A stretch of 55,110 nucleotides of DNA from a virus (lineage: Duplodnaviria > Caudoviricetes), in IMG/VR virus record IMGVR_UViG_3300021197_001923, positions 1 to 55,110 of that record. One strand, 5' to 3'. Made by a program: the position numbers and the translations under genes. Under the pieces are notes generated by a model, which saw nothing but the letters and a program-made list of their open reading frames with translations, had not been told where the DNA came from and ran no database searches. Of this stretch, positions 17,001 through 40,191 are shown in pieces (position 1 is the first letter of the stretch; each line of letters starts with the position of its first letter).

Positions 17001-17684
17001 GTCAGAGGGGCTATGAAGGGGGCCGTAGTCGATAGCCTCGTCACAGAAGTATTTGGTGCCACACCAATGTCAGTGGTGGGTGATGCGGCCGCATTTAATA
17101 CAAAGATAGGACGTTTAAAAAACGTATTGGATCGCAAGGGTAATGATTTTCTTGGCGGCCTAAGAGTCATGTTCAAGGATGATCCAGAGGCCCTGCAGGG
17201 TGTTGAATTGGCTTTGACGGGCCTTATGCGCCAAAACGTGCCTTCACGCATCAAAATCAATCAGGCGGGATCTGACACAGCCTTCAATCAGCAAATGATC
17301 GATGAAGTTAGTGACAGCGTATCGGCTGGGGTGCTTTTAATATTTGGATACATGACACCGGCGGGTGCCTTGGCTCGCAATGTATCTCGTGGTCGGATCA
17401 AAGAAATGGAAGGATTAGCCAAAACTGTTGGTGATGAAACACTCGCATTGATTATTTCCAACCCAGTAGAATTTGGGCAGATGGTACGAGATGTCTCAAA
17501 AGCACAAAGCAGAGGCGCCAAGGAAGCAATCGCCAGAACATATGTTGAAACTGTAACGCATGGATTGGGCTATCAATTGCGTATCGATGAGACTGGAGAA
17601 AAACCTGTGCCTTTGGATCAGCAAATGATTGACCTTGGCGGACAAGCTCAACAAGTTGTGAATGAGGTTATACCCCAGCAGTAA
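13998..17684 (+). CDS. Large internal virion (ejection) protein
   Basis: 1228 aa helical protein ending the structural operon. Confidence 0.7.
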   Translation: MMASFDYEKYGLTRPGEEATKSSEPVDTQTEDTSDAYYEALTAGQKIAFDSMEPELQNMYRENPVLTVRDEGDTNPSSAGEDDDVVFVGTRRTVDVTDQIKDVAEAADDNTYEALYPDAATIKPSTTIKAKAFDFINLLFPDMPEQDAQAEFKKQSADRKKFLEEAQKVYEDIGFERDGERVLEEWDVDKDGNLTLLNTTLIPSPDSTEWQRVMTNTGRNIQAQVGGLLTEGAIASESDFERSIPTFEQSSGEDFVTDILTFGLPAVGAQRLVKGTRALAAATIIPQQVLNLSKVTAATRYLTNTLGVAFSDAVIASGEDQGFIDPKVIEQRFGMSSEDARDAALFFESMAFSGAMDGIASVAGIFGGFGKRRVEGVRAFTSKDFIRNKSAQGAMMGVVNLLDPSIAKASKFNQKRKLAAMADMLSNNAMLKLSAGDVEALIPSDSATAVLNGAKKYIANTRSDMRRKLSQDEFFKYVDEEAGKMALTMIEIARTRAGDPATVAAQGRTMKGFENFLNKVSVRKIPEGQSIQEALEGSINDLVSLRNSQVDDAASDVVITSVAKDQAQDAVDNSIMQVPELQKLMEGTPDVFNSQAFYDRLTKSMTGLEGSGSLLEQYKKTWDEVQAAYKAVPNVPIDLNLFKSELDIALASAGPLDTSGPAIRKVLGDIEKIFKPKKIGSEQVVDPLGDPRSPATRDIMQTKEDLMEGLSEIGFQDLLKFKQSLEQSISKMPDSEARRSLEQFARHITDSDAGQLAFVANSVDSEAAEAAQTAINKFIDAKGKFENSTPMQQFSQGARVVTGKGMNTAVSGDGAMRGMPDLQKFSTTDMPGLLVSDKSGAWMRNYVTAMGGGDNAALQPMRELAEAQAQYELVQAMRSGSSDQVNQIFDVLNGNRSTLDALNSTLVDDLQKVAKDLRIKQTELGDDLAGADDALRSAKERLAKAENSILESFISDNFPDMPVSNPKEALTLMMTDSVDGANKIASLLDEVSKLPPEQAMAVRGAMKGAVVDSLVTEVFGATPMSVVGDAAAFNTKIGRLKNVLDRKGNDFLGGLRVMFKDDPEALQGVELALTGLMRQNVPSRIKINQAGSDTAFNQQMIDEVSDSVSAGVLLIFGYMTPAGALARNVSRGRIKEMEGLAKTVGDETLALIISNPVEFGQMVRDVSKAQSRGAKEAIARTYVETVTHGLGYQLRIDETGEKPVPLDQQMIDLGGQAQQVVNEVIPQQ

Positions 17685-17758
17685 AGAAAAACCCTCGTAA
17701 CTTTCGCTACGAGGGCCTCATATCTAACTAAACGACAAGGTGACCAAACCCTGTGTCC
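17683..17758 (-). ncRNA. Candidate trans-acting antisense sRNA-A (~75 nt)
   Basis: Own promoter; 5' hairpin with UUUGGUCA loop; terminator CCCUCGUAGC-GAAA-GUUACGAGGG-UUUUU; complementary blocks at 20448-20491 and 26264-26294. Confidence 0.7.
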
Positions 17759-17764
17759 AATGTT

Positions 17765-17800
17765 TATATAGCAATACGCTAGCACTTAATAAAGTTTTAA
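17765..17800 (-). promoter_or_regulatory. sRNA-A promoter overlapped by a CtrA-type box
   Basis: TTTATT-17-TATATA with TGn; TTAA-N7-TTAA at 17786-17800. Confidence 0.5.
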
Positions 17801-17927
17801 ATGCACCAAACTACGCAAAAGTTTACATATTTATATAGCTGTATACACGTTTTTGATTATTGACGATTACAAGTGCACTACAAATTAGTTTAGAAGCATT
17901 TAGGTACATTTTATGTATATTTTACAG

Positions 17928-17962
17928 ACGCTTTTGCTGAACTACAGCAGGAGCGTTTTTTT
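17928..17962 (+). terminator. Intrinsic terminator
   Basis: ACGCTTTTGCTG/CAGCAGGAGCGT stem followed by a T run. Confidence 0.65.
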
Positions 17963-17988
17963 GTGATTTTTCGCTTTTCTGGCTAATT

Positions 17989-18010
17989 TTGTCACATCAC
18001 TGTTACAAAA
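17989..18010. repeat. 22-bp element, exact inverted copy at 33567-33588
   Basis: TTGTCACATCACTGTTACAAAA. Confidence 0.9.
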
Positions 18011-18231
18011 GGCTGGCAAATCGAAGGGAGCATCACAAGTCGTCGGATACAGCAACTAATCCACAAAAACATACAATTTGCCCCACAGCTGTAGATTCGG
18101 ATATTGTGAGAGCACAGTCTCGTAATGAAGAGACTTAATCGTGGAGTGCAGTCTGACCAGCCGCTTATACTCCGCAAATTTGAACTTTTGAAGTCCACAT
18201 GAGGGTTTCATATTTAACTAAAGGGATGTCT

Positions 18232-18459
18232 ATGAAAATGACACCACACATGGCCATTGAAAAGGGCCAGAAACTACTCGAACAGTCAATAAAAATGGAA
18301 GAACAAGGTCAGGCACTTATCGATGCCGGCTTTGCAGATGGTCGAGATCAACTGGTTTACGAAAGTGCCTTCGGCGGCTGGAATGTCGATGACGTTCACA
18401 ACACCGATGATTATCACTACGATCCATCAATCGATTTTTTGATTACAAATGCAGCTTAA
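18232..18459 (+). CDS. Hypothetical protein
   Basis: AAGGGA RBS; followed by a terminator. Confidence 0.55.
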   Translation: MKMTPHMAIEKGQKLLEQSIKMEEQGQALIDAGFADGRDQLVYESAFGGWNVDDVHNTDDYHYDPSIDFLITNAA

Positions 18460-18461
18460 TT

Positions 18462-18486
18462 AAGGCCCCTTCGGGGGCCTTTTTTA
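18462..18486. terminator. Terminator between convergent genes
   Basis: AAGGCCCC-TTCG-GGGGCCTT-TTTT. Confidence 0.85.
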
Positions 18487-19776
18487 TGCCCGTGGATATT
18501 GTAGCTTCAACATTGTTTTCACCGCTACATCCCAATCGATTTTACCTGAATATCCACCGTATGTTTCATCTGGCACTGCATGACCAATAATACGTGCCGC
18601 TAAGTTTTGTTCTACTTGAGCGTTTTCAAAACGATTTGCCATGGTGGCTCGAAAGCTATGGAACGCATGGCGCTTGGTCTCGAAACCGAGTTTAGACTTG
18701 AGCCTATTAAACCGATGGCTAATGCCTTTGGTACGAGTTTTATATTTGTTGTTAGATGACTCTCCTGAAATCAAAAAGCCATCTGTGCTTGTTTGCTTTA
18801 AGCGTTCAACCATTTGTTGAATATCAGGATGGATCGGTATTTCACGCTCGCCATTATAGGTTTTTGAGTCCTCTACCACAAAACGGTCGTCTAAAACCGA
18901 GGTTACCTTCATGTTGCCGATTTCGTTTAAACGCATCCCAGTGTACATGCCCAGCTTAATAATATCGATTAAGTTTTGATCGTCCTTTTCAACAGCAGCC
19001 TCCAGCAGCATGTAGCATTCTGCTACCTCGTAGGGTTTATAAGTGACGTTCGTACTCTTTTTTCTAGCAGCTTTTGTTCGATTGACTGGGGGTAGTATAG
19101 ATGATCCCACCGCTAAATTTGTGGCCTCAGTATATTTCCCCTCACAATACGCCCAAAGTTTATTCACGTACCCAAAGTTTTTGTTCACTGTTCGGCGTGT
19201 CCACTCTGGGTAACCGTTACGACCTTGCAGCATATCATCCACCCAAATTTTGAGCTCTGACTTTTCTATCGTTTCAAAAAACGGAAAGCGCTTGCAGAAA
19301 TTACCCAGCAAAAACGTTACAGCGCCATCTTTGCCTGAAGGCACGTACCCATGCTGCGTCACCCACTCATCCACGTACTTGGTGGTAGGAGTATAGGCTT
19401 TTGTTGCCATCCCAAATGCTCGCACCTTGTCCTTCGTTTTTTCGTCCAATTCTGCGCCAGGTCGCAGGGTGTGCGCCACCGTTTCAAAGGCACTCTCGCC
19501 GCCGCCAAGTTCTTCAAATAGCCTTCTGGATTCTTCAGCAGTTGCGTCGAGGTCAACAATTTCGCCTCGCTCTTTTGCCCGTGCAGCTTTGATTAAACTT
19601 TTCCAGCGATGGACATGCGGCAGCTTTCTAATTTCAGCCTCGGCAAAGTTATGGGTCTCCAGCGTTTGGATGAACTTTCTTTTGCCAAAAGTGGCGTGTA
19701 AATCTTTCGGCACTTGCATCACAGCGTAGTAAGTTTTGAACTGTGTGATGAGATATTGCCCGTTAGCTTTAGTCAT
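18484..19776 (-). CDS. int: Tyrosine integrase with DUF6538-like N-terminal domain
   Basis: YYAVMQVPKDL...LET N-terminus; catalytic TGMR, SKT, HSFR, GH, Y. Confidence 0.92.
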   Translation of the reverse strand: MTKANGQYLITQFKTYYAVMQVPKDLHATFGKRKFIQTLETHNFAEAEIRKLPHVHRWKSLIKAARAKERGEIVDLDATAEESRRLFEELGGGESAFETVAHTLRPGAELDEKTKDKVRAFGMATKAYTPTTKYVDEWVTQHGYVPSGKDGAVTFLLGNFCKRFPFFETIEKSELKIWVDDMLQGRNGYPEWTRRTVNKNFGYVNKLWAYCEGKYTEATNLAVGSSILPPVNRTKAARKKSTNVTYKPYEVAECYMLLEAAVEKDDQNLIDIIKLGMYTGMRLNEIGNMKVTSVLDDRFVVEDSKTYNGEREIPIHPDIQQMVERLKQTSTDGFLISGESSNNKYKTRTKGISHRFNRLKSKLGFETKRHAFHSFRATMANRFENAQVEQNLAARIIGHAVPDETYGGYSGKIDWDVAVKTMLKLQYPRA

Positions 19777-19792
19777 GCATATCCTCAGTTTT

Positions 19793-19991
19793 TATACCTA
19801 GGTTTATACCTAGGTTTTTATACCTATGCAACAAAAAGACCATATTTTATTGGTTTTTTATGGACATTATGAACTTAGGGATAGCTTCCCGCTACCCGCT
19901 CCAAGATATTTTTATCCAATAAAATCAGTTACTTAAACAAACTGACTAGGATAATTATACCTAGGTTTATACCTAGATATTTATACCTAGG
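19793..19991. other. attP: tRNA-Gly-like 3' core TTCCCGCTACCCGCTCCA (19886-19903) flanked by six TATACCTA(GG) arm repeats
   Basis: Repeats start at 19793, 19805, 19819, 19956, 19968 and 19982; adjacent to the integrase start. Confidence 0.85.
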
Positions 19992-20008
19992 TTTTGATCT
20001 ATGCATAC

Positions 20009-20048
20009 AAAAAGGCCCCCAGAATAAACCAGGGGCCCTCTTGTTTTG
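20009..20048. terminator. Terminator, probably bidirectional
   Basis: AAAA-GGCCCC...GGGGCC-CTCTTGTTTT. Confidence 0.6.
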
Positions 20049-20066
20049 CTTCGGAATCGCAGTTTT

Positions 20067-20318
20067 TTACACGTCGAACTTAATTTGATTGCGAGTATAT
20101 GCCGACGAATAGTCGCTGGCATTGTCTGAACTCGAACCAACATAACGATGTTCAATCATTTCGGTGCTGCGAAAATCCCATGATGTAATCCCATAGTCGC
20201 CGCCGATTACGCAATCTATCGGCCCAGTTGCCTTTTTGATTGCGTCGTCTAAAGCGTTTTTAATTCGGATCGCATCTTCGAGGTATATTGTACCTTCAAA
20301 GCGATTGTTTTGAACCAT
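20067..20318 (-). CDS. Hypothetical 83-aa protein with long structured leader
   Basis: GGAAGGA RBS before ATG at 20318; shorter than the ORF-track call. Confidence 0.6.
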   Translation of the reverse strand: MVQNNRFEGTIYLEDAIRIKNALDDAIKKATGPIDCVIGGDYGITSWDFRSTEMIEHRYVGSSSDNASDYSSAYTRNQIKFDV

Positions 20319-20653
20319 ATAGTTCCTTCCATGCCTTGGGTGGGAGCACCCGTTAAAGTTTGTTTTGCGTATTCGTACCGTTTTCCGCTCGCCAGCTCCT
20401 TTTTCATTTGCTGGATGCAACAATGTTTCGCTGCATCCAGCAATCACTTTGGTCACACGTTTATCGCTCGTCAGCATAGATATGAGGCCCTGAAGTAAGC
20501 CATCGCTCTACGAATGGCAGCGGGTATCTCATGCAGCCCGTTATGTTGCGCTGCGTATCAAAACATTAACCTAAAACGTTCGACCAAAAAATAGCTGGAA
20601 GGGATTTATTTTGAAATCTTTTCTCTTGACATCGGTATTCTCAACGGATCAAC

Positions 20654-20668
20654 GTTCGCTTTTCGTTC
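20654..20668. promoter_or_regulatory. Alphaproteobacterial LexA (SOS) box
   Basis: GTTC-GCTTTTC-GTTC, intergenic; TTGACA at 20626. Confidence 0.7.
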
Positions 20669-20849
20669 TAAACCGCTGATTTGCTTGAAAAAAGCTGCTC
20701 CTGACAAGTTAGGACAACATGTAGTGGTGCGTGTCACTAACTGCATATATGCGGTATATGCAAAAGGTGACTCCCAATTGTAAATTTAGAAAGTTTATTT
20801 TTGCCCAAATTGAACCATTTTGCCCCGCATCGCACCGAATCGGCCCGAA

Positions 20850-21284
20850 TCACTCTGGCGGTTTTGCCAGAAGGTTGATGATCTGAATAGCTTGCTTTGA
20901 GACATCATAGAATTTTTCACCGACAGGCACCTTAACGTTTGGTATTACCTCAATGGGAGCGGCCAGCACTGTGTGACGACTAATAATTGCTGCGTGGGTC
21001 ATGCCTTGGTTTAGCACAAAAAAATGGCATGGGCGTTCTGTGAACTTTTTCTTTCGATACGGAATCCGCAGTGTGGGAAAATTGAACTCAGGCCCATGCC
21101 ATCCTAATTTCACTTCAACTTCACAGCCAAAGGATTTGCCCTTGCCTCTCACCAGCAGGTCAACGCCGAAATGGTCAGGGTTTTCGTTGCACTCATAACC
21201 CAACTGTTCCCAAAACTTTTGGGCAGTGAATTTTGCAGCATTATCGTATTGCTCGTAAACATCTCGCTCGAATTGTTTAAGCAC
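20850..21284 (-). CDS. PD-(D/E)XK nuclease-fold protein
   Basis: GVDLLV...EVEVK motif. Confidence 0.7.
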   Translation of the reverse strand: MLKQFERDVYEQYDNAAKFTAQKFWEQLGYECNENPDHFGVDLLVRGKGKSFGCEVEVKLGWHGPEFNFPTLRIPYRKKKFTERPCHFFVLNQGMTHAAIISRHTVLAAPIEVIPNVKVPVGEKFYDVSKQAIQIINLLAKPPE

Positions 21285-21447
21285 GGCGCCGCTCCTGGTT
21301 TTTCAGGTATGCGCAGTTCCAGCCTCGAATCCATTCACGGGCGTAAAATGATTGCGGCCTATATGGGCACCGATCATCGGTTAAAAAAGCGTTCCAGCCA
21401 ACTTGGTAGGGCCGCTCTGCGGGGAAAAAACGTTTCATGTACTGCAT
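21277..21447 (-). CDS. 56-aa Rmf/CrpP-fold-like protein (not in the ORF track)
   Basis: MQYMKRFF...YQVGWNAF...RCPY...REWIRGW; GGAGAG RBS; coupled to the next gene. Confidence 0.7.
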   Translation of the reverse strand: MQYMKRFFPAERPYQVGWNAFLTDDRCPYRPQSFYAREWIRGWNCAYLKNQERRRA

Positions 21448-21477
21448 CCATATTCTCTCCCCCCATCATGGTTTGAG

Positions 21478-23160
21478 CTAGACGCCGCAGCTGCCACCTG
21501 TGCCGCTGATGTCGCAAATATCGTGAGTTTCTATTGCTTCATCAAATTCCTCGCCAAGCTTGGCCACAGCCTCGCTGTATGGGACTGATGTAAGCGGTTG
21601 GCCACCACGGGAACCGTCTGGGTAACAAGTGAAGCCACGAAGCCCGTGAGCATATTTGGCAAGGGTTTCGGCAAACTTTGGCACGGTGTCTTCGTTATTT
21701 AACTTGGTGCCCCACGCCGGCAGATTGATCGTTGAGGAAATCGACATATCAACGTAACTTTGTACATCACTTTGAAATTTCATGCGCCGTTCATAATCGC
21801 TGGCCAAATCCAAAGCGCTCTCAATTGTATCGGGAGAAGCTCCATAGCGATCAATCAGTTGCTGCGCAGCGGAATCGACAACGTATTGGTAAACCCAGCG
21901 ACTATTACCTTTCAGGTAACGCCTTTTATAAGCAACGGCAAAGATAGGCTCAACACCAGTAGAGGTACCAGCCAATATGCCAATCGAACCTGTCGGGGCG
22001 ATGGCTCGATTAGCAACAGGGCGAGTGATGCTAAAGCGATCCGCAGTTTCTTTGCTAACTTTGTCAGAAATACCTTCGTAAACCGAAAGCCAATTATGTA
22101 GTTCAGGGGTAACTTCATAGCGTGATCCTCTTTGTATAAGCCACTCGTGGATGCCCATTAAGCCCAAGCCCAAGCGACGGTTTTTCGCACGGGTCAATTC
22201 AACTTGGGGGTAAGGCAGCTTTGCTTTCATTGTTCCGCAAAGCAAAAATTTTGTGGCCAGTTCTACGACTTCCGCCATTTCGTAGATGTCTTCGATACGG
22301 CCCATGTTAATGCTGCCTAAGTTGCAAACATCACTGTCATCAGCGGACGTAATTTCCGTACAAGCGTTTCTTAACGTTTCGTTTTCTTTGTCGAAGAAAT
22401 TGAAGCTAAAACCAGGTTCGGCGGTCTTCATGGCTTGGTGGACATTCTCCAAAAATACATCGCCAACATCGCCAGTTTTGTAATAATTAAGCAGCCATTC
22501 GGTGTCATAATTCACGCTGATATTGGTCATATCTAGAGGGGCAGGAAAATTGAAATCGTGCTGCTTAATATCCCATAAGCTTTGGCCCGTATTTCCCACC
22601 ATCATAGACTGCCAATCCTTGGCGTGAAGGAAATCCAGTATATCGCCGTGCTTCCAGTTCAAGCTAGCGTAAATGGCCGATCTACGAGAACCGCCTTGCA
22701 TCACCTTCGACCCAATAGAATTGATCATCTGCATCTTTGGGATCGGGCCTGAAGCTGTGCCGCCAGTTTGATGAATTGGAGATCCAGCGGGGCGGTAAAC
22801 TGAATAATCGATGCCGATTCCGCCGCCAGTCATGAGGCAGCTTTCCGCCTTCCAACTAAGGTTTGCCCAGTCTTCACGAGTGTCTTCTTCGGCTTTCAAC
22901 AAAAAACAATTATTGAAAAATTTATTCGAGCGACCAGCGTAATAAAGATACCGGCCCCCAGGGATGAATTTCAAATCCCTTATGAACTCGTACAAGCGCT
23001 GGACATCATCCTTTTGCAAAAACTCGCTACATACATCTTCGACCAGAGTTGATGCCAAAGCATCCCAAGTCTCGGCCCCCTCATGGGCATATTTATGATT
23101 AAAAATGTCTTCAGAAAATTTGCTCCGAAACATTGGGTTGAGGTTGCTTTTAAAACTCAT
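21478..23160 (-). CDS. nrdJ: Ribonucleotide reductase, class II (B12-dependent)
   Basis: GGRY, NNC, NACTE, CNLGSIN, LGLG and APTG motifs; C-terminal Cys pair; no beta subunit gene. Confidence 0.85.
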   Translation of the reverse strand: MSFKSNLNPMFRSKFSEDIFNHKYAHEGAETWDALASTLVEDVCSEFLQKDDVQRLYEFIRDLKFIPGGRYLYYAGRSNKFFNNCFLLKAEEDTREDWANLSWKAESCLMTGGGIGIDYSVYRPAGSPIHQTGGTASGPIPKMQMINSIGSKVMQGGSRRSAIYASLNWKHGDILDFLHAKDWQSMMVGNTGQSLWDIKQHDFNFPAPLDMTNISVNYDTEWLLNYYKTGDVGDVFLENVHQAMKTAEPGFSFNFFDKENETLRNACTEITSADDSDVCNLGSINMGRIEDIYEMAEVVELATKFLLCGTMKAKLPYPQVELTRAKNRRLGLGLMGIHEWLIQRGSRYEVTPELHNWLSVYEGISDKVSKETADRFSITRPVANRAIAPTGSIGILAGTSTGVEPIFAVAYKRRYLKGNSRWVYQYVVDSAAQQLIDRYGASPDTIESALDLASDYERRMKFQSDVQSYVDMSISSTINLPAWGTKLNNEDTVPKFAETLAKYAHGLRGFTCYPDGSRGGQPLTSVPYSEAVAKLGEEFDEAIETHDICDISGTGGSCGV

Positions 23161-23167
23161 GGCAACC

Positions 23168-23593
23168 TCACGCTAAATCAGACAGATCGGGCGCTTCGTA
23201 ATTAGGCCCTTTCATAATTTTGCCGTCCTTCCGAACAATCGGATTTCCGGTATCATCCAGTTTGCTCATGTTACTTGCATGTACACGGCGGAATGCGGCA
23301 TCTAAATCCCAGCCAAATGAAGCAGCGTAGCCATAGGCAACGTAGAGCACGTCACAGAGCTCTTTTACGACCTCCTCAGATGTCTCCGCCGCACAAACTT
23401 CATCAAACTCCTCTTGCAGCAATTTTAAGCGCAATCGGTCCAGATCCGAGTTCTGGATGTAAGGGTGATCTAACGAATGCCCCATCACACGATGAAACTG
23501 TCGTACCATCTCCATTGGTGTTTTCCCGATGTAAGTATCAGGGTTACGCAGGGCGTCATTACCCTCGTCATAATATTCAAATGCCACGTCCAT
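23168..23593 (-). CDS. MazG-like / PRA-PH nucleoside triphosphate pyrophosphohydrolase
   Basis: LLQEEFDE...KELCDVLYV...VHASNMSK...DGKIMKG. Confidence 0.88.
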   Translation of the reverse strand: MDVAFEYYDEGNDALRNPDTYIGKTPMEMVRQFHRVMGHSLDHPYIQNSDLDRLRLKLLQEEFDEVCAAETSEEVVKELCDVLYVAYGYAASFGWDLDAAFRRVHASNMSKLDDTGNPIVRKDGKIMKGPNYEAPDLSDLA

Positions 23594-33410: not shown

Positions 33411-33453
33411 GTTATACACAAGATTCGGTACGTGTCAATCTATAGTGCACTAG
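33411..33453 (-). promoter_or_regulatory. Promoter with palindromic operator
   Basis: TTGACA-16-TATAAC; TAGTGCACTA just upstream of the -35; GANTC in the spacer. Confidence 0.75.
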
Positions 33454-33566
33454 GTTTAGCAAATTAATGTGCTGGGTATTGTGTTTTACAGCGCCAGACA
33501 GAAATTTCCAATATACATGCGATTTTCCTCGTAAACTTGTTTGAAAGCTCGCAAGTCATGCATGGA

Positions 33567-33588
33567 TTTTGTAACAGTGATGTGACAA
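33567..33588. repeat. 22-bp element, inverted copy of 17989-18010
   Basis: TTTTGTAACAGTGATGTGACAA. Confidence 0.9.
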
Positions 33589-33606
33589 TTTTGTGTGATT
33601 TGAGTG

Positions 33607-33633
33607 AAAAAGAGGCCGCTAGGCCCCTTTTTT
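33607..33633. terminator. Bidirectional terminator
   Basis: AAAAAGAGGCC-GCTA-GGCCCCTTTTTT. Confidence 0.65.
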
Positions 33634-33772
33634 AACTCTTTCCGCCGTATTTCAGGTCGTACTGTTGGCAGAGGTATAACATTTCTTGGTGCAGTTGTTC
33701 AAGAAGCCGGTCCTCTGCCGATTTACGCTTCTGTATGCGGTCCAATGATGCTGGACGTTCGAGTTTACCCAT
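33632..33772 (-). CDS. Small hypothetical protein
   Basis: GAGG RBS; overlaps the recombinase stop. Confidence 0.5.
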   Translation of the reverse strand: MGKLERPASLDRIQKRKSAEDRLLEQLHQEMLYLCQQYDLKYGGKS

Positions 33773-34853
33773 ATGTCGCCTCACGTTTGCTTTGAGCAGC
33801 TTCGGCCTGACGGCGGGTGGTCTGCACATAAGTATTCAGCACTGCACGGGATCGATGGCCAGTGATACTTCTCAGCTGATCTTCGCTACAGCCAGCATCT
33901 CCAAGCTCGGTCGCAGCACTGCGGCGCAAGTCAGATATTTTGAGGTTGTGGTCGAGGCCGGCAAGCTTACGCACCAATTCTGCTTTCTTGCGGTATAACC
34001 TTCCAGAATACCGCTCGCCTGTACCCTCGTATTTAGCAATGGTCTCGTCATGCTTGCAGTTTGATAGCAGCTGTATTTGGCGGATGCGCTCCCGCAACAT
34101 CGCTGTCGCAGGGATGTCCATGTCGGCGCCGGTCTTTTGCTGCTTAAATACGAAAAAACCGTCTTGATAGTTAGACCAAGTCATATTGCGACAATCGCTT
34201 GGACGCTGGCCCAATTCAAATGCCATAGCAGCGATCGTACCGATACTTGTAAGCCCGTTGGAATCTGCAGTTGCGATAAACATATTCAATTCGTCACGAT
34301 GCCAGCGAGTGGTACGGGGCGAAGTTGGTAGCAATGTCAGATCTGTGAATGGGTTGCTCACGTTGAAATCAAAGCTTGGCGCCTTGTTCCAGATCCGCCG
34401 CAAAACCTTTATCACCTGATTGGCCGTGGCCAAGGATTTCTGCTTGCGCAACTCCTTATATATAGCTTCCGCCTGTCGTGGGCGGATATTGGCAACCAGC
34501 TGCTCTGTAAATGGCTTACTGCCAATTAGCGTTGCTTCCAGCACAATACCCAACATCGTGGCGTAATTTCGTTGGCTATTCTCTGCTAAAGCGTCCCAGC
34601 TGCTCGAATTTTGATAGGCTAGAACCAGGGCGCCAACAGTGCTGTGAGTACGATCCTGAAACCGCTCACCTGACTCCTTATATATACCCAGCGCTTTAAT
34701 CGCCTCGTCGATGCGGGCCAAGGCGTCTTCCTTCCGGTCGTATTGCTCGTATTTAAAACCCAGTTTGTCAGACAGGGATTTACTCGGCTTGAAGGCGTGG
34801 GCAATCTTGCCACTCTTCAGATTAATCTCTTTATAGTGCGGAATTTTGGTCAT
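33765..34853 (-). CDS. Tyrosine recombinase (HMO-2011-type core integrase-like)
   Basis: GQRPSD, QQKTG, DLRR, TGH, TY motifs; GGAG RBS. Confidence 0.88.
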   Translation of the reverse strand: MTKIPHYKEINLKSGKIAHAFKPSKSLSDKLGFKYEQYDRKEDALARIDEAIKALGIYKESGERFQDRTHSTVGALVLAYQNSSSWDALAENSQRNYATMLGIVLEATLIGSKPFTEQLVANIRPRQAEAIYKELRKQKSLATANQVIKVLRRIWNKAPSFDFNVSNPFTDLTLLPTSPRTTRWHRDELNMFIATADSNGLTSIGTIAAMAFELGQRPSDCRNMTWSNYQDGFFVFKQQKTGADMDIPATAMLRERIRQIQLLSNCKHDETIAKYEGTGERYSGRLYRKKAELVRKLAGLDHNLKISDLRRSAATELGDAGCSEDQLRSITGHRSRAVLNTYVQTTRRQAEAAQSKREATYG

Positions 34854-34880
34854 TACTGTCTCCAGATAGATATGGCACAA

Positions 34881-34909
34881 AGCATAGGTCCCGCACGTCA
34901 AAACGTCAA
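34881..34909 (-). promoter_or_regulatory. Recombinase promoter
   Basis: TTGACG-17-TATGCT. Confidence 0.7.
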
Positions 34910-34925
34910 TCCGTAAATTTAGCTA

Positions 34926-34954
34926 TTGCATAACATAGTGCACTACAGTAAAAA
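34926..34954 (+). promoter_or_regulatory. sRNA-B promoter with operator in the spacer
   Basis: TTGCAT-17-TAAAAA; TAGTGCACTA at 34936-34945. Confidence 0.55.
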
Positions 34955-34960
34955 TGATTC

Positions 34961-35100
34961 TGTACCCAGCGGATAAGCAATCTCCTCCCATCATGCTGTT
35001 GGGTACAAAGGGCAAATCTTCTACGCTCTTGTCCTTTTTGCTAGTTGGTGCCGTTTCTGACCTTTTTCTCTCAATTCTACTCCAGAAACGGCACCTTTTT
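34961..35100 (+). ncRNA. Candidate sRNA-B: three hairpins with CU-rich (anti-SD) loops
   Basis: 12-bp, 8-bp and 13-bp stems; UCUCCUCCC loop; terminal T5; starts about 7 nt after the -10. Confidence 0.7.
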
Positions 35101-35217
35101 CACTCGCACGTCAAACGCATTTGTATGCTCATATGTATATACAGCCTTCTGACAACTTATCCTGACATAACGCTGAACTTTGCAATTAGTGATTTCACGT
35201 AAAATTTATTTCTTTTT

Positions 35218-35266
35218 CATAGTGCACTATGTTTTGCTTTACAAATTTAGACCTTTTTGGGATTCT
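35218..35266 (+). promoter_or_regulatory. Promoter with operator
   Basis: CATAGTGCACTATG then TTTACA-17-GATTCT. Confidence 0.6.
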
Positions 35267-35337
35267 GATTGCACCGGCCGGCGCCCGACCAGCGCTGCTT
35301 TGGCCGGCTCATATCTAGCAAAAAGGAAAACCCAACC

Positions 35338-36162
35338 ATGGGATACAATTTCAGAAACACGGAAACGGCAACGCCGGCATTGCTCAACGGCAATGTGAAT
35401 TTAACCTTAAAAAGCCGAAACAAGAAAACCGGTGATATACCGGTATCAACCAGCGGAAAGCAAACATGCCCCGACTCTTGCCCACTAAAAGCAAGCGGCG
35501 CTTGTTATGCCATGACGGGCCCGCTTGGCTTATTCTGGCATAAAGTATCGATCGGCAATGCCGGCGCAACATATGACCATTTTGTAAAACAAGTGGCCGC
35601 TTTGCCTGATGGTCAATTGTGGCGCCACAATCAAAGCGGAGACTTGCAACCATCATACACCGATCGGGAAACGATCGACGCACCGAAATTGCTGGCATTG
35701 GTTGAAGCAAATCGGGGCCGCAAGGGTTTTACATTCTCGCATTTCGACCCGATCGCAAACCCGCTCAACAATTATGCGCTGGCCATGGCCAATAATAACG
35801 GCTTCACGATCAATTTAAGCGGAAACGATGTAAACCACGCCGATCGGCTGGCAGATACAAATTGCGGGCCGGTTGTTTCAGTTTTGCCGCTTGAATATGA
35901 GCGCAGAACAGAACGGACGCCGGCCGGCAAGCAATGGGCCGAAACGATCGCCGAATATAAAGACCGGCTGGCAAGCTTGCCCAAAGCAACACCGGGCGGG
36001 CGCCGCTTGGTTGTTTGTCCTGCCACCTATTCGGACGATGTTTCTTGTAAGACTTGCGGGCTTTGCCAAAAGCAACGGGCAACAATCATCGGTTTTCCTG
36101 CACATGGCACAAGCCGGCGCAAAGCCGATGCCGTCGCAAAGGGAGAATTGACCCATGCCTGA
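35338..36162 (+). CDS. Cys-rich DUF7227 / gp88-like protein
   Basis: SRNKKTGDIPVS, TCPDSCP, CYA, WRHNQSGD, CPA...C..C.LC, GFPAHG; AAGGA RBS. Confidence 0.75.
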   Translation: MGYNFRNTETATPALLNGNVNLTLKSRNKKTGDIPVSTSGKQTCPDSCPLKASGACYAMTGPLGLFWHKVSIGNAGATYDHFVKQVAALPDGQLWRHNQSGDLQPSYTDRETIDAPKLLALVEANRGRKGFTFSHFDPIANPLNNYALAMANNNGFTINLSGNDVNHADRLADTNCGPVVSVLPLEYERRTERTPAGKQWAETIAEYKDRLASLPKATPGGRRLVVCPATYSDDVSCKTCGLCQKQRATIIGFPAHGTSRRKADAVAKGELTHA

Positions 36163-36424
36163 TATTTATTGTTCAAAATGTGGCGAGCCATGGGACGCCG
36201 ATGAATTGCACGACGTGCCGGCGATCAATCCCGATCGGGGCGCCGGTGTCTTAACTTACAAGCAAGCGGCCAAAATGTTTCCGGCCTATGGTTGCGGGCT
36301 TTGGGTCGATCGTTTCGACGGTGGCGCTTTTACACCGTGCACGGCGCCGATCGTCGATGATGTCAGGGCAGAACATGCATCCGTCATGCATTCAATAAGC
36401 CCGTTTCCGGATGATTGGTTGTGA
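36155..36424 (+). CDS. Small Cys-containing early protein
   Basis: DIYCSKCGEPWD; GGAG RBS. Confidence 0.75.
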   Translation: MPDIYCSKCGEPWDADELHDVPAINPDRGAGVLTYKQAAKMFPAYGCGLWVDRFDGGAFTPCTAPIVDDVRAEHASVMHSISPFPDDWL

Positions 36425-36426
36425 TA

Positions 36427-36606
36427 ATGTATTTACTCGCATGGACAATTAACCACGGCCAAAACAATCTGATCGACCATCAGATAATAGAGGATGAGCC
36501 GCAAGCTGTTGCGCAATGGGTTGATTCAATCCAGACGCAAGCCGACGTTCATTGTTGGGCCGCTTGCAAGATATTAGAGGCGAGCGAGCCGCATTGGATA
36601 GAATAA
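36427..36606 (+). CDS. Hypothetical protein
   Basis: Coupled ORF; SEPHW end. Confidence 0.6.
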   Translation: MYLLAWTINHGQNNLIDHQIIEDEPQAVAQWVDSIQTQADVHCWAACKILEASEPHWIE

Positions 36607-36607
36607 C

Positions 36608-36679
36608 ATGGCGCCCATATATCAGGCGATCGGCTTTGCTGTGTTTTGGCTGGCCGTGATCGATCTAGCCTATAATTGA
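36608..36679 (+). CDS. 23-aa hydrophobic peptide
   Basis: MAPIYQAIGFAVFWLAVIDLAYN between the previous stop and a terminator. Confidence 0.4.
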   Translation: MAPIYQAIGFAVFWLAVIDLAYN

Positions 36680-36687
36680 AAACAAAT

Positions 36688-36717
36688 AAGCCGGCCTTAA
36701 TTGGCCGGTTTTATTTT
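36688..36717 (+). terminator. Intrinsic terminator
   Basis: GCCGGCC-TTAATT-GGCCGGT-TTTATTTT. Confidence 0.75.
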
Positions 36718-37350
36718 GTCCTAATGTTGACCAGGCGGGCGCCGTGTTCCTGGTAAGCAATGGGCCGATCGCAAGGCCGCTTTAATCAATCCCACGCAAT
36801 GCCCAAAGCCGGCGCCGTTGCACGTTACACGGCCGCATGTGGCGATCGCCGGTTAACTTGTCAGTCCTTGCCCCGATCGGATGCAGGGCCGCCGCTGCTG
36901 TCGTATAGGTGCACCGCTAAGGCCCGCCCGCCGGCTTATGAAAATTGCCAAGCGGCCATTGCCGGCGATTTTTGGGGCCCTGATTTGCGGCGTTATTTTA
37001 TTTGTAGATTGATTTTGTAGATTGATTTTTATCAGGCCCAACAAAACAAGGGCAATTAGCGATCGGGGCCGTTAACTTATGGTAAGCGGCCCTTAGATTC
37101 GGCCTGATTTTCTATAAATTTAAAGCTTTTTCGCTCGCAATCGGCCCCGCATGTGACAGGGCCCCCCATACCGGTAGCGTATACAAACCCAACCTATTTT
37201 TGAAAAATTGGTACTGTAAAATAGGCCCTGCTTTAAAGCACCCCATGCGGACCATTTCGGCGGATCTGTCAAAATGCTTGCGGCGGTGTGCGGGAAATTT
37301 ACAGCAGCGTCTGTAAAGCCAATTTTAGTTCTATTTCGGAGCATATCGGC

Positions 37351-37379
37351 TTGTCCTGAATCCCATAATTTGATACAAT
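37351..37379 (+). promoter_or_regulatory. Sigma70-like promoter
   Basis: TTGTCC-17-TACAAT with TGn; GANTC in the spacer. Confidence 0.6.
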
Positions 37380-37419
37380 AAGGGCACAGGGAAACCTGTT
37401 CATATCAAAGGCTCTAATA

Positions 37420-37743
37420 ATGGGCAATTACGGAACTGATGCATCATTGCAGGTTCCCGTTTCTCTCGAATTTGACGTAGATTTAGACGATGACGGCGTA
37501 AGCTATTTTGTGGCTAACGTTTACATTGCGGATACTGATGATTCACAAGAGATACGGGTCGAAACTGATGAAGTTGTGGAGTCACTAAGTGACTTTTATG
37601 GCGATGTAGAGGGCTATCAGCACCTTTACGTTGTAGCGCACGAACTCAATCGGGTTTCAGAACAATTGAGGGAAAAAGCAGGTTTGATAGAAGACAGCGT
37701 TGTTGCTGTAAATGATCTCTTCGACCTGGACTATGACGACTGA
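37420..37743 (+). CDS. Acidic hypothetical protein
   Basis: 107-aa ORF. Confidence 0.7.
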   Translation: MGNYGTDASLQVPVSLEFDVDLDDDGVSYFVANVYIADTDDSQEIRVETDEVVESLSDFYGDVEGYQHLYVVAHELNRVSEQLREKAGLIEDSVVAVNDLFDLDYDD

Positions 37744-38128
37744 ATCTAAGCGATGTGGGCGTTGTAAAACAATAAAACCGATTGAAGCATTTTACCTCAA
37801 TCGGTCTAAAAGTATGGGCAGGTCGTGCACATGCAAGGAGTGCTTTAATCACCATCAGGCAATTATTCGGCGGTTACATAGCGAGCACCAAGTTTCTGAT
37901 GGTCATTTATGTCCAATATGCTGGCGTTCGGCGGATCAAGTAACCACTCCAAGCAGTCGCACTAAGACCCCGTGGCGTTTAGATCACGATAATGAATCTG
38001 AACTGTTTAGAGGGTTTTTATGCGATGGTTGTAATACGGGCCTAGGTAAATTTGGGGAAAGCCCTGAGCGGCTAATGAATGCGATGGTGTATTTGTTGGA
38101 TAATGCCAGTCACTTTGGAAGGGAGTAG
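37733..38128 (+). CDS. Endonuclease VII-family HNH nuclease
   Basis: CGRC...CKEC; CPIC; LDHD...RGFLCDGCNTGLG. Confidence 0.85.
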   Translation: MTTESKRCGRCKTIKPIEAFYLNRSKSMGRSCTCKECFNHHQAIIRRLHSEHQVSDGHLCPICWRSADQVTTPSSRTKTPWRLDHDNESELFRGFLCDGCNTGLGKFGESPERLMNAMVYLLDNASHFGRE

Positions 38129-38190
38129 TATTACCCCTCTCCAAAAGGCTTCTTATTTTACCATGTTCGCCAGAAAAATCAACCCCTAAA

Positions 38191-38242
38191 ACACAATATG
38201 TTGTTTTCTGTGGTTGTGGAAAACAAAATATTGTGGTATAAT
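38191..38242 (+). promoter_or_regulatory. Late-region promoter with tandem NrdR-like boxes
   Basis: TTGTGG-17-TATAAT with TGn; acaCAATATGTTG and aaaCAAAATATTGtgg 30 bp apart. Confidence 0.6.
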
Positions 38243-38282
38243 ACGATCATATCCCAAAATTTTAATACTTAGGAGTACCACC

Positions 38283-38429
38283 ATGAAAGCTGGTAAAGCT
38301 AAATGTGGTGCGTCCAATCCCCCTGCACAAAAATCTACGCCCAAAATGATGGGTGGAGGTATGGCTTACAAAAACTCTAAGCCCAAAATGATGTATGGCG
38401 GAATGGCGCATAAGAAGAAAAAGGCCTGA
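38283..38429 (+). CDS. Small basic protein with two PKMMxGGMA repeats
   Basis: AGGAG RBS. Confidence 0.75.
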   Translation: MKAGKAKCGASNPPAQKSTPKMMGGGMAYKNSKPKMMYGGMAHKKKKA

Positions 38430-38432
38430 TCG

Positions 38433-38720
38433 ATGCGTAGACCAATGCCTAGACAAAACCGCCCTGCAAACAGATTATCCGGTCGGCCGATGCCAGCTGG
38501 AGGACAGCGTCAGGGAATGGCTCCACAGCCAGCCCCACGTCAAGCTATGGCTGCACAAGCCGGTGGCCGAGCGGCAATGCCAAACCCACCGCAGCCCGCT
38601 AGACGGCGCATGGCTGCGAACCCTGCACCAAGACCTATGAATCGAGGCGCTCGCCAAGAAGTGGCGATGCAGGACAGCAAAAGACGTCCAGCGCCCGCAC
38701 CTAGACGTCCAATGAACTAA
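38433..38720 (+). CDS. Arg/Pro/Met-rich basic disordered protein
   Basis: Coupled ORF, low complexity. Confidence 0.6.
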   Translation: MRRPMPRQNRPANRLSGRPMPAGGQRQGMAPQPAPRQAMAAQAGGRAAMPNPPQPARRRMAANPAPRPMNRGARQEVAMQDSKRRPAPAPRRPMN

Positions 38721-38914
38721 TGTTTTGGGTGGCCTTGGTTTTAGCCTGTAAGGGGCCCATGGCCATACACTGCCAACCAATAGTAAATTCAAACGCATTT
38801 CTTAGCCAAACTGAGTGCATCGCTGATGTGCAAAATGTCGTAAAGCAACTCACCGCCCAAAAACTGATGGCGATGGGGTCCTGCTTCAAAATCAAATCTG
38901 GACTTTCAATCTAG
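38720..38914 (+). CDS. Small secreted/membrane Cys protein
   Basis: MFWVALVLAC, four Cys; TAATG overlap. Confidence 0.65.
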   Translation: MFWVALVLACKGPMAIHCQPIVNSNAFLSQTECIADVQNVVKQLTAQKLMAMGSCFKIKSGLSI

Positions 38915-38935
38915 CAAGCACTTTCGGGGGGAAAG

Positions 38936-39406
38936 ATGTTAGCCGAAACATTAGCCGTGGTCAGTGCGGCCAACGCAGCTATTGGGCAAATCAAAACCTT
39001 AGTCAGCCATGGCAATGACATCAGCAGCATGGGGCGCCAACTTGGCGCAATCCTGACCGCTGAAGAGACATTACAGGCTCAAGGTAATAGCAAAAAGAAA
39101 TCGCTGTTTTCAAAAGCCTTGGGCAAGGACAACGATTCATTTGAAGAATTTATGCACCTCGAAAAAATCCGTGAGGCTCGCAAAGAAATCGAGTCGATGA
39201 TGAAAATCTACGGTCGAGCGGGGCTTTACCAAGATTGGGTCAATTTCCAGCGTGAAGAACGTGTTCGGAAGAAACAGGAAGCGGAAGACCGTGCTAAGGC
39301 TAGAGCTTTTTTCGTTAATCTGGCGCAGTGGTCTATTGCCGGCCTGATTATGTTTGGATCGGCATTCGGATTACTCTATTGGGCATGGCTCACTCGTGGC
39401 TGGTGA
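38936..39406 (+). CDS. Conserved phage membrane protein
   Basis: Coiled coil plus C-terminal TM. Confidence 0.8.
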   Translation: MLAETLAVVSAANAAIGQIKTLVSHGNDISSMGRQLGAILTAEETLQAQGNSKKKSLFSKALGKDNDSFEEFMHLEKIREARKEIESMMKIYGRAGLYQDWVNFQREERVRKKQEAEDRAKARAFFVNLAQWSIAGLIMFGSAFGLLYWAWLTRGW

Positions 39407-39656
39407 AACTTTAATCAGCCACTTTCCCCTACCATCGATGCCGTTTCAAACGCACGTAAACATCGTGTTTCAAAACGGGGTGGGTGAGCCAACGGAGAAA
39501 ATGGCGAGATCCGAAACAGGCGGTACGAAGCAAGAGCTCGATCCCGATACACCGGTTGAAAACCTAAAGATCGTAAATCAGAAATACGCCTATCACCCAG
39601 ATCCAAACAAACTCCGAACACCAGACGGTCAGATCGTGGACTTCGTTGTGGCTTGA
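39396..39656 (+). CDS. Hypothetical protein
   Basis: GTG start overlapping the upstream stop; GQIVDFVVA end. Confidence 0.6.
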   Translation: MAGETLISHFPLPSMPFQTHVNIVFQNGVGEPTEKMARSETGGTKQELDPDTPVENLKIVNQKYAYHPDPNKLRTPDGQIVDFVVA

Positions 39657-39657
39657 T

Positions 39658-39817
39658 AAAAAAAGGCTGGCTACTCAAACCCAGAATAAGCCAGCCAGAA
39701 GGAACATGTCGACCTCGTAATGTCGGGAAGAGCATTACGAAGAGGGTTAGACTGACTTCCCCAACCATTGACGGAAGCCAGCCCGTGAAACATTCACTGG
39801 TAATAAATATTTCACCT
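39658..39817 (-). ncRNA. Candidate sRNA-C: four tandem hairpins ending in a terminator
   Basis: Stems 39785-39815, 39749-39784, 39713-39742 and 39665-39696; G-U pairs and U7 tail on the minus strand; TTGACA at 39843-39848. Confidence 0.6.
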
Positions 39818-39904
39818 CTGATGATTGCCTCACTTATTAAAGTGTCAAAACGTTACCTAACGTCACAATTTTAAATTTTCATTCACTTGCTTAATTTTTG
39901 ATCA

Positions 39905-40174
39905 CTATTCTAAATTTGCATCACCACTTTCTTCACTATCCTGTGCTGTTCTACTGCCTGACATAGCAAATTCAGAATTTCCGACATAAACAATCTGACT
40001 GCCCGCCCGAACTGACGCACCGCATTTCGTACATCTGGTTTTAGTCACAGCCTGATCCGCAGTTATATCAGGCCCAAATTTCTCAATAAAAGCTTTAACG
40101 GGTATTAGTCCAGCGTGGCCACACCAGCATCTGATGCTCAAGTGATTGTTTCTAATTGCTCCGAGTCTGGTCAT
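39905..40174 (-). CDS. 89-aa Zn-binding protein under a LexA box
   Basis: CWCGH...RCTKCG; antisense to the late operon. Confidence 0.7.
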   Translation of the reverse strand: MTRLGAIRNNHLSIRCWCGHAGLIPVKAFIEKFGPDITADQAVTKTRCTKCGASVRAGSQIVYVGNSEFAMSGSRTAQDSEESGDANLE

Positions 40175-40176
40175 AT

Positions 40177-40191
40177 GTTCACATTTTGTTC
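40177..40191 (-). promoter_or_regulatory. Alphaproteobacterial LexA (SOS) box
   Basis: GAAC-AAAATGT-GAAC 2 nt before the ATG. Confidence 0.8.

Follow-up and report, generated by a model that had tools for sequence, protein, structure and literature searches.

The genome analysed here is the IMG/VR virus record IMGVR_UViG_3300021197_001923, a whole linear virus genome of 55,110 bases with a completeness rating of 100%, and this entire sequence is referred to as the window throughout. The text concerns the control of its early genes, its two integrases and the means by which a lysogenic state might be held. An initial annotation of positions 17683–40191 had described a temperate phage without a recognizable CI repressor, in which small RNAs (sRNAs) would hold lysogeny and cleavage of host LexA would release it. 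The present analysis favors another reading, in which early transcription is controlled through a repeated palindrome, TAGTGCACTA, the phage integrates without CI-type lysogeny, and the LexA-like boxes are peripheral; taken together, these three elements have in our judgment an even chance of being right. The anatomy on which the initial annotation was based (integrase, attP, missing CI, shared operator) is largely real. Its LexA boxes are probably real but peripheral, and its sRNAs are unproven.

Gene content and affiliation of the phage

The window phage is a podovirus of the HMO-2011 type, and its host is a marine alphaproteobacterium, probably one of the Rhodobacteraceae. Its DNA polymerase A gene (26358–28451, minus strand) encodes a product with a DnaJ-type CXXCXGXG insert, and Pfam places PF00476, PF01612 and PF00684 together on this open reading frame (ORF), the last with an E-value of 1.4e-4 at residues 308–347. 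A partial DnaJ central domain (CXXCXGXG) between the exonuclease and polymerase domains is the feature given for the group in the sections of PMC9038755 at hand, and the window polymerase has this HMO-2011-type arrangement. It is 56–60% identical to the polymerases of CRP-235, CRP-212, CRP-738 and CRP-3 and shares 37% identity with its HMO-2011 counterpart, and the gene order of the window agrees with CRP-235 and CRP-3. Phages of this type rank among the most abundant known marine viruses (PMC9038755). A close relative at the DNA level was absent from 50,697 phage records, against which megablast gave a single match of 82 nucleotides (nt), and scans of viral contigs with the integrases Int1 and Int2 as single proteins found zero relatives. 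A scan for the DNA polymerase yielded 14 loci; relatives are referred to by L numbers below.

The stretch flagged by the initial annotation comprises a leftward early block, running from 34901 down to 18484, a divergent region (34902–35337) and the first rightward genes, which encode DUF7227, endonuclease VII and several small products. The terminase gene begins at 42092. The rightward late genes begin 370 nt from Int2. The leftward block starts with Int2, continues with the replication genes and closes with another integrase cassette, made up of attP and Int1. No tRNA genes were found in the window. The main features of the block are:

18484–19776 (minus strand): Int1, a tyrosine integrase of 430 amino acids (aa) with an N-terminal DUF6538 domain (PF00589, E 1.2e-13; PF20172, E 2.3e-9)
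19791–20001 (plus strand): attP of Int1, a core flanked on either side by three arm-type repeats (TATACCTAG)
20067–33389 (minus strand): replication and nucleotide module, assigned by Pfam and PHROGs, in the order seen in CRP-235 and CRP-3
33632–33772 (minus strand): o65, a conserved 46-aa ORF that overlaps the 3′ end of Int2, with tblastn matches in six relatives
33765–34901 (minus strand): Int2, the canonical HMO-2011-type integrase (PF00589, E 1.2e-11)

The module holds o136, o144, an RMF-like ORF, the ribonucleotide reductase gene (RNR), a MazG-like gene, DUF3310, PDDEXK_15, a Cas4-type exonuclease and o291, and further DNA polymerase A with its DnaJ-type zinc motif, a helicase, o261, the primase, o74, o92, o69 and o333. 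The HMO-2011-type roseophages CRP-3, CRP-235, CRP-212 and CRP-738 resemble the window phage in the DnaJ-motif polymerase, in gene order and in the lack of a described repressor (PMC6918029, PMC9038755). Unlike them, the window phage carries a further integrase cassette, whose attP has a tRNA-Gly core. The TAGTGCACTA palindrome, absent from the parts of CRP-3 and CRP-235 examined, and a 22-nt long-range inverted repeat are likewise features of the window.

A palindromic element shared by the early transcription units

The sequence TAGTGCACTA is a perfect 10-bp palindrome, of which the window contains six exact copies and one copy with a single mismatch:

34936–34945 (no strand): TAGTGCACTA upstream of Int2, also lying in the spacer of a rightward promoter-like TTGCAT-17-TAAAAT (34926–34954)
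35220–35229 (no strand): TAGTGCACTA upstream of the rightward DUF7227 gene and the late genes
33443–33452 (no strand): TAGTGCACTA located 4 nt upstream of TTGACA-16-TATAAC, ahead of o333
30989–30998 (no strand): TAGTGCACTA upstream of o261, within the 3′ portion of the primase gene
29871–29880 (no strand): TAGTGCACTA preceding the helicase ATG by 27 nt, flanked by a terminator-like hairpin on one side and the ribosome-binding site on the other
26332–26341 (no strand): TAGTGCACTA located 3 nt upstream of TTGACT-17-TATACG, ahead of o291
17871–17880 (no strand): AAGTGCACTA, the copy with one mismatch, in the spacer that separates o86 from the structural genes

With up to one mismatch allowed, these seven sites compare with 1.39 expected, and none of 100 shuffled sequences reached seven. 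The "shared operator" of the initial annotation could thus be confirmed and given a sequence. The sites at 35220 and 30989 have the longer arrangement TAGTGCACTA-N8-TTTACAAAT (repeat I1) in common, and a promoter-like TTTACA-18-TATATT (30980–30951) lies near the latter. Read by hand, the o291 site is TAGTGCACTA-tag-TTGACT-17-TATACG and the o333 site TAGTGCACTA-taga-TTGACA-16-TATAAC. These two promoters and the one at 34926–34954 are our own reading; the promoter scan, which returned fewer sigma-70-like sites than shuffled sequences (21 vs 29.4; 9 vs 14.2), missed them because their −10 element lacks the required T6 or their −35 element has only three of six matches.

Two relatives carry the palindrome at the same relative places as the window, L007 with six copies and L013 with four, and none of the other 15 loci examined contains it. 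In L007 it lies 4 nt from a TTGACG upstream of Int2 and again at the position corresponding to the site at 30989, and a block of 20 nt at the 33443 site is also present there. Upstream of the o291 homologues, eight relatives possess a lineage-specific element at a fixed distance of 3–4 nt from a TTGAC −35 hexamer. This element is TAGTGCACTA in the window and L007, TAGTGTAATAG in L008, L009 and L012, and of the TAGTGTATTAG type in L010, L014, L019 and L004.

Because a perfect dyad is repeated at every early unit, and stands beside −35 hexamers at two of the sites, the element is best explained by the binding of one dimeric DNA-binding protein and not of an RNA. Such a regulator, of phage or host origin, would bind TAGTGCACTA and thereby coordinate the transcription of Int2, o333, o261, the helicase, o291 and the rightward DUF7227 operon. 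Whether the putative protein activates or represses these units cannot be told from the sequence alone. One operator sequence at many transcription units is also found in mycobacteriophage L5, whose stoperators are asymmetric repeated operators bound by a helix-turn-helix (HTH) repressor. In contrast to L5, the element of the window is a palindrome, and no HTH repressor was found in the ORFs scanned.

Two integrases and one attP site

Int1 lies at the tail of the leftward early region. Homologues with 41–56% identity follow RNR and o144 in the metagenomic relatives L006, L007 and L011, and only four weak matches (24–27% identity) were obtained against the 50,697 phage records. Int2 lies at the head of the same region, a placement like that of the published integrase of the group, which sits upstream of the replication genes (PMC9038755), and it shares 37–39% identity with the integrases of CRP-212, CRP-235 and CRP-3. 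Its true start is probably the ATG at 34853, as alignments to relatives begin at residues 13–22. The overlapping ORF o65, for which no Pfam family at E ≤ 1 and no PHROG was found, is possibly a recombination directionality factor.

The arm repeat TATACCTAG is present upstream of Int1 in five exact copies (0.17 expected; none of 100 shuffles reached five), and a sixth, overlapping copy from the 9-mer count completes an arrangement of three plus three arms flanking about 130 nt (repeat families D1 and D7). The attP core between them (19887–19903) is the 17-nt sequence TCCCGCTACCCGCTCCA, which equals the 3′ end of tRNA-Gly. It is matched exactly in 13 of 401 sampled alphaproteobacterial genomes, compared to one genome for the reversed control, and forms the last 17 bases of a tRNA-Gly gene in five of the six loci that were fetched. 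L007 exhibits the same layout of three plus three arms with a different repeat, and otherwise only a core block of 19 nt, of which the 17-nt sequence is a part, is common to its attP and that of the window. Arm sites around a tRNA-type core, as expected for an integrase of the lambda Int kind, were found for Int1 only, and no piece resembling a tRNA 3′ end was detected as an attP for Int2. CRP-3 integrates into tRNA-Met (PMC6918029), and the 3′ half of this tRNA could be located upstream of its primase gene, a piece without counterpart for Int2 of the window. The annotated "integrase with attP" is therefore not only borne out but extended to two PF00589 integrases, one of which has an attP with a tRNA-Gly core. 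This anatomy can be read directly, whereas insertion by Int1 is predicted: its target would be a tRNA-Gly gene, at the 3′ end.

Search for a repressor and for integrated relatives

A total of 203 ORFs of at least 40 aa overlap positions 17600–42200, and no HTH, ribbon-helix-helix (RHH), S24 or repressor family was found by Pfam in the 180 of them that were scanned. These were 40 main ORFs and 140 further ORFs of at least 44 aa, the latter at E ≤ 0.05; 22 ORFs of 40–43 aa and a structural ORF of 1228 aa stood outside the scan. PHROGs, applied to 30 main ORFs and the same 140, gave no repressor category either, and the only unexpected Pfam match was the RMF-like ORF. At profile level, a lambda-type CI or LexA-like repressor (HTH plus S24, or a CI/Cro-type HTH) is thus absent from the ORFs scanned. 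This agrees with the claim of the initial annotation that there is no HTH-S24 repressor, and the search of the small ORFs for HTH and RHH folds with hidden Markov models, which it had named as a check, yielded no match in the 140 ORFs. In two papers on HMO-2011-type phages (PMC6918029 and PMC9038755), the word "repressor" has zero occurrences.

No integrated relative was detected in a scan of one genome per species (185,579 species) with the DNA polymerase profile. The scan returned only two close relatives, contigs of 54 kb and 24 kb in metagenome bins, neither of which is an evident prophage. The larger (L019; 54,065 bases) encodes a polymerase of the HMO-2011 type with 50% identity and belongs to the Rhodospirillales metagenome bin G001, and the 24-kb contig (L018) belongs to a bin labelled Legionellales. 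Both are probably binned phage DNA and not prophages.

For the T7-like cyanophages S-TIP37 and P-SSP7, PMC8776855 reports that integration was shown, that no stable lysogens were obtained and that a search for repressor homologues found none. Like the window phage, these are podoviruses of lytic type that have an integrase and an attP but no homologue of a known repressor, and the lack of such homologues in integrase-bearing marine podoviruses is hence already in print (PMC8776855). They differ in belonging to another phage family and in possessing their own RNA polymerase, and their integration is an experimental result, in contrast to the sequence-based description given here. Two integrases and a shared palindromic operator distinguish the window phage from them. 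As no repressor was found and the T7-like cyanophages provide a precedent (PMC8776855), integration without CI-type lysogeny appears the most likely mode of life for the window phage. Integration would then most likely happen transiently or rarely, with no coupling to immunity of the CI type.

Within the rightward late region, three ORFs of 153, 127 and 52 aa lie on the minus strand (40878–41741). They contain segments that read as signal-peptide-like or membrane segments, and one of them has weak YebO-like and weak PHROG membrane-protein matches. By their sequence they look like moron or exclusion genes.

LexA-like and CtrA-type boxes

The pattern GTTCN7GTTC is given as the SOS box for Caulobacter (PMC9578287, Table 1). 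The initial annotation had listed two LexA boxes, and two matches to this pattern are indeed present, a number that does not exceed chance (1.47 expected; 41 of 100 shuffles with at least two). The Escherichia coli-type box CTGTN8ACAG has zero matches in the window. The two boxes, the adjacent gene o165s and the proposed CtrA-type box are located as follows:

20654–20668 (plus strand): LexA-like box a, GTTCGCTTTTCGTTC, which follows o144 by 182 nt and precedes o136 by 177 nt
40177–40191 (plus strand): LexA-like box b, GTTCACATTTTGTTC, 2 nt from the o165s ATG
39905–40174 (minus strand): o165s, a zinc-finger-like ORF of 89 aa inside the rightward region
17786–17800 (plus strand): TTAATAAAGTTTTAA, a CtrA-type half-consensus, a chance match

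What speaks for the LexA-like boxes is their position. Both are intergenic, and across the window and its relatives seven of nine non-redundant boxes fall in spacers, which make up about 18% of the flagged stretch (p roughly 1e-4, by our own classification). In L007, L011 and L014 the o144 homologue is likewise followed by a box, at a distance of 24–209 nt, which together with the window makes four of the seven genomes containing this region. L014 also has an o165s gene with a box at the same place, under TTGACG-17-CAAAAT, and box b of the window overlaps the −10-like CAAAAT of o165s. The sequence GTTCnnnTTTTGTTCTCA is common to box b, both boxes of L011 and the box of L014, and in three of these four boxes it is extended by CAT before or by TT after the box. 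In L007, about 430 nt (15390–15820) separate the LexA-like box from the next ORF; this stretch looks G+C-rich and possibly structured, and no Rfam match was found for it at E ≤ 1.

In marine data the o165s family is represented by 49 clusters; those of full length (cover of at least 87%) are 68–95% identical, and two of the shorter clusters, of 49 aa, are named from Rhodobacteraceae. Weak homologues occur in 12 of the 401 alphaproteobacterial genomes, and GAACN7GAAC or its complement was found 60–140 nt upstream of the o165s homologue in 5 of 12 fetched bacterial loci. From this pattern the o165s family looks SOS-regulated, and boxes a and b are credible as LexA operators of accessory genes. 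An ESM Atlas search with o165s (score 0.89, 103 shared features) was discarded as lying in the range of chance.

The boxes do not control early promoters, and because they are sited at the accessory genes o136 and o165s, they appear peripheral to the switch. Of the "host-regulator switch" that had been proposed, a LexA link for a few accessory genes is therefore plausible, while a control of the early promoters is not borne out. Host DNA damage would switch on o165s, and possibly o136, through the LexA-like boxes. In coliphage 186 with its Tum protein and in the Gifsy phages with their antirepressors, LexA-controlled phage genes trigger induction. The window phage resembles them in having a host LexA box on the promoter of a small phage gene, with no cleavage of a phage repressor itself, but unlike them it has no known repressor on which o165s could act. 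Since bacterial genomes, too, encode members of this family next to such a box, o165s may be a plain SOS gene carried by the phage.

The "CtrA-type box" has to be dismissed. TTAAN7TTAA has two matches compared to 1.56 expected (46 of 100 shuffles with at least two), the full TTAAN7TTAAC is absent from the window, and no box stands at the matching place in 182,487 nt of relatives. The idea of a host cell-cycle regulator is known from CtrA-regulated alphaproteobacterial phages (PMC9437464), whereas the box of the window is at chance level and not conserved.

RNA candidates and a long-range inverted repeat

A search of the window with Rfam 15 gave zero matches at the gathering score, and within 17000–41000 no credible match was obtained at E ≤ 1, the only one being terminator-like (E 0.57). 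The three sRNA candidates of the initial annotation had been named without coordinates. Two leads for RNA-based functions or pairing are a structured element and an inverted repeat with two arms:

34958–35104 (plus strand): structured element of 147 nt with three hairpins, the last being a 13-bp stem followed by five U
17989–18010 (plus strand): arm 1 of a 22-nt inverted repeat, TTGTCACATCACTGTTACAAAA, a perfect pair (I4)
33567–33588 (minus strand): arm 2 of this repeat, between the terminator after Int2 and o65 and the o333 promoter

The 147-nt element has a minimum free energy of −47.3 kcal/mol (z −6.29), none of 200 shuffles folded as well, and its z in sliding windows was −5.04. Spacers in general were not more structured than genes, with a mean z of −0.91 (112 windows) vs −0.67 for coding sequence (40 windows, minimum −4.34). 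Together with the weak rightward promoter-like site at 34926–34954, a predicted RNA of about 140 nt would result. This could be a trans-acting sRNA or, equally, the terminated leader of the late, rightward operon. For a terminated late leader, the lambda promoter PR′ with its terminator tR′ and the short 6S RNA provide a precedent.

By our own arithmetic, a perfect 22-nt pair is expected by chance at about 1e-4. At corresponding positions, L007 contains a perfect pair of its own, 19 nt long and unrelated in sequence to that of the window. One of its arms follows a promoter-like site and precedes the o333 ATG by 13 nt; the other is found on the downstream side of Int1, where it stands 4 nt ahead of an intrinsic terminator resembling the one at 17688–17719 (minus strand) in the window. 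As the pairing was kept while both arms changed, the comparison argues for a functional long-range complementarity, in the form of either an RNA-RNA pairing or a pair of recombinase sites. Another inverted repeat of 15 nt (17712–17726 and 20477–20491, the second arm at the start of o136) is treated as a lead only, about 1.4 such pairs being expected by our own arithmetic and four long-range inverted pairs of exactly 15 nt, including this one, being seen.

Among the sequencing runs listed, 20 of 23 contain all or part of 30500–40400, and two of these 20, recorded as metatranscriptomes, contain small shares. The contigs of the two RNA-library runs (depth 2–5), compared over 17600–37599, cover genes and spacers alike and carry no information on strand or ends; no joints at attP or at the repeat arms were found in them. 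Gaps between contigs and missing joints in the runs are taken as evidence neither for nor against any of the elements.

Alternative explanations of the switch

If the palindrome is bound by a protein, the phage itself offers one candidate:

32197–32388 (minus strand): o69, a 63-aa zinc-ribbon ORF (CxxC...CxxC) whose start overlaps the o333 stop

Ogr and Delta are small zinc-finger proteins of P2 and P4 that bind a dyad upstream of the −35 hexamer, and o69 might bind the palindrome as these activators do, in which case the circuit would be a purely lytic temporal cascade. This explanation seems unlikely to us. It is favored by the distribution of the o69 type, which is present only in the window, L007 and L013, the three bearers of the palindrome, while L008/L009 and L010/L014 combine other zinc-ribbon types in the o69 position with other motif types and L005/L006 have neither; in addition, the center of the motif lies at about −43 at two promoters by our own reading. 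Shared ancestry could, however, also account for the co-occurrence of o69 and palindrome. Moreover, o69 falls outside the Pfam family Ogr_Delta (no match at E ≤ 1 or E ≤ 0.05), and its AlphaFold2 model is all-beta with a moderate pLDDT of 68.8, the best Foldseek match in the PDB having an E-value of 0.59. A profile search found the o69 family in five clusters among 1.84 billion representatives, a word-based protein search returned the query alone, and a profile scan of viral contigs gave only two contigs that were already known. The contig L019 breaks the covariation between zinc ribbon and motif: it has seven sites within one mismatch of TAGTGTATTAG, four of them exact, yet no zinc-ribbon ORF, the best profile match in its bin reaching E 0.27. 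As binder of TAGTGCACTA, o69 is a doubtful candidate, no more likely than a host factor or some other protein of the phage.

RNA-based immunity has a precedent in the satellite phage P4, where the CI RNA pairs with repeated targets in its operon. The model of the initial annotation, which would take the form of spacer sRNAs pairing with early mRNAs until host LexA cleavage releases the prophage, is in our view improbable, and the same applies to a more specific version for the two-integrase subset, in which a small RNA encoded beyond Int1 would pair with the leader of the replication operon and silence replication in the integrated state, with SOS genes as the link to damage. The perfect 22-nt repeat does have a counterpart in the 19-nt pair of L007, which shows the anatomy of an sRNA seed and a target in a 5′ untranslated region, kept through two-sided change; the 147-nt element is strongly structured (z −6.29), the LexA-like boxes are credible, and RNA-library contigs touch 33419–33572 and 36860–37179. 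Against this, the RNA-library contigs define no transcript, strand or end, and Rfam has no match. Arm 2 of the window lies upstream of the predicted o333 promoter and is thus possibly outside that mRNA, and a repeat of at least 15 nt at matching places is absent in L006, L011, L014, CRP-3, CRP-235, L018 and L019. In comparison to P4, the window offers complementarity for one, perhaps two, targets and a candidate RNA only. What the early units have in common is a palindrome in the DNA, and this implies a protein; moreover, accessory genes are where the LexA boxes stand, and no lysogens are known. A hold on lysogeny by sRNAs and its release by LexA cleavage are unsupported.

The inverted repeats might alternatively be sites at which a tyrosine recombinase inverts the 15.5-kb replication module, either as a switch or as an aid to replication, an explanation that we consider very improbable. 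The 22-mer reads 7-6-7 (TTGTCAC-ATCACT-GTTACAA), like a recombinase core site, with a dyad symmetry of six of seven positions as read from the sequence; two recombinases are present, and identical inverted arms bracket the segment from o333 through Int1 in both the window and L007. However, no strand-changing joint was seen at either arm in four runs compared over 17600–37599, and the contigs of run X1 pass straight through both arms, although contigs drop rare forms. The L007 arm is without clear dyad, and the arm precedes the o333 promoter in the window but follows it in L007.

Palindrome-centered early control with integration but no CI-type lysogeny remains the explanation we prefer, and several observations weigh against it. 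The negative profile search is compatible with a repressor of novel fold, structure prediction having covered one small ORF, and the genome scan consisted of two peptide patterns in one genome per species, so that rare lysogens would escape it. The three ORFs at 40878–41741 and the presence of two integrases look like investment in a prophage state. The helicase-site palindrome leaves no room for −35 and −10 elements downstream, and a "promoter tag" hence misfits some of the sites; the break in covariation seen in L019 counts here as well. Finally, the conserved long-range complementarity has no place in this explanation.

Further features of the genome

Several other features were noted along the genome. 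The neighboring ORFs o74 and o92 (31707–32206, minus strand) have a KIA-x-E/D-HG motif in common by eye and may be paralogues; zero homologues in the relatives and zero family matches were found for them. Between RNR and o144, an ORF of 56 aa (21277–21447, minus strand) matches the Pfam family of the ribosome modulation factor RMF with an E-value of 3.9e-4, its 20.9 bits being below the cut-off of 27.9 bits. A phage-borne gene resembling a hibernation factor would be unusual. The ORF o86 (18199–18459, plus strand) resembles gp01 of CRP-3 and CRP-235 by eye (start pattern M-K-L/M-x-P...A-x-E-x-G...LL), and has a homologue in L014 with 35% identity. In CRP-3 and CRP-235, gp01 lies upstream of the integrase, and in L008 and L009 a LexA-like box stands about 40 nt upstream of the gp01-like ORF.

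In L008, L009, L010 and L011 the polymerase match is split over two frames; the translation of L008 8640–10741 contains 29 stops, and the best single tblastn segment spans only 569–573 residues. An insertion, an intron, an intein or a frameshift could explain this. A G+C-rich spacer of 813 nt (36607–37419) contains a bidirectional terminator (36688–36711) and a repeated element of the CGTTAACTT type, and two 151-nt contigs of the RNA-library run X17 map to it (36860–37010 and 37029–37179). Its role could be that of an origin or a packaging site, or it could encode a structured RNA. A tandem pair of 42 nt (38329–38412; 79% alike) lies inside small ORFs rich in Lys, Met and Gly. Near the two ends of the record (101–3540 and 54993–55055), where structural genes lie, direct repeats of 15–31 nt probably mark paralogous repeat domains.

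Implications

As far as our searches of the literature went, supplements excepted, the two-integrase layout, the lineage-variant promoter palindrome, the SOS-type o165s gene and the compensated long-range repeat have not been described for this group. The present genome supplies parts with which to approach the question whether the integrases of HMO-2011-type phages mean true lysogeny. For the second integrase, attP and the corresponding attB in tRNA-Gly are defined. The factor that binds the palindrome would be a master regulator of the early units, the LexA operators on accessory genes are credible, and the compensated complementarity points to a possible sRNA together with its target. If an sRNA does silence replication in the two-integrase subset, immunity of the P4 CI RNA kind would exist in a very abundant group of marine phages, and SOS genes like o165s would be its link to DNA damage. 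If repressor-free immunity, based on RNA or wired to the host, is true, then counts of integrases in viromes, which are taken to indicate temperate phages, would read differently. If it is not, the window phage would be a further case of integration without lysogeny.

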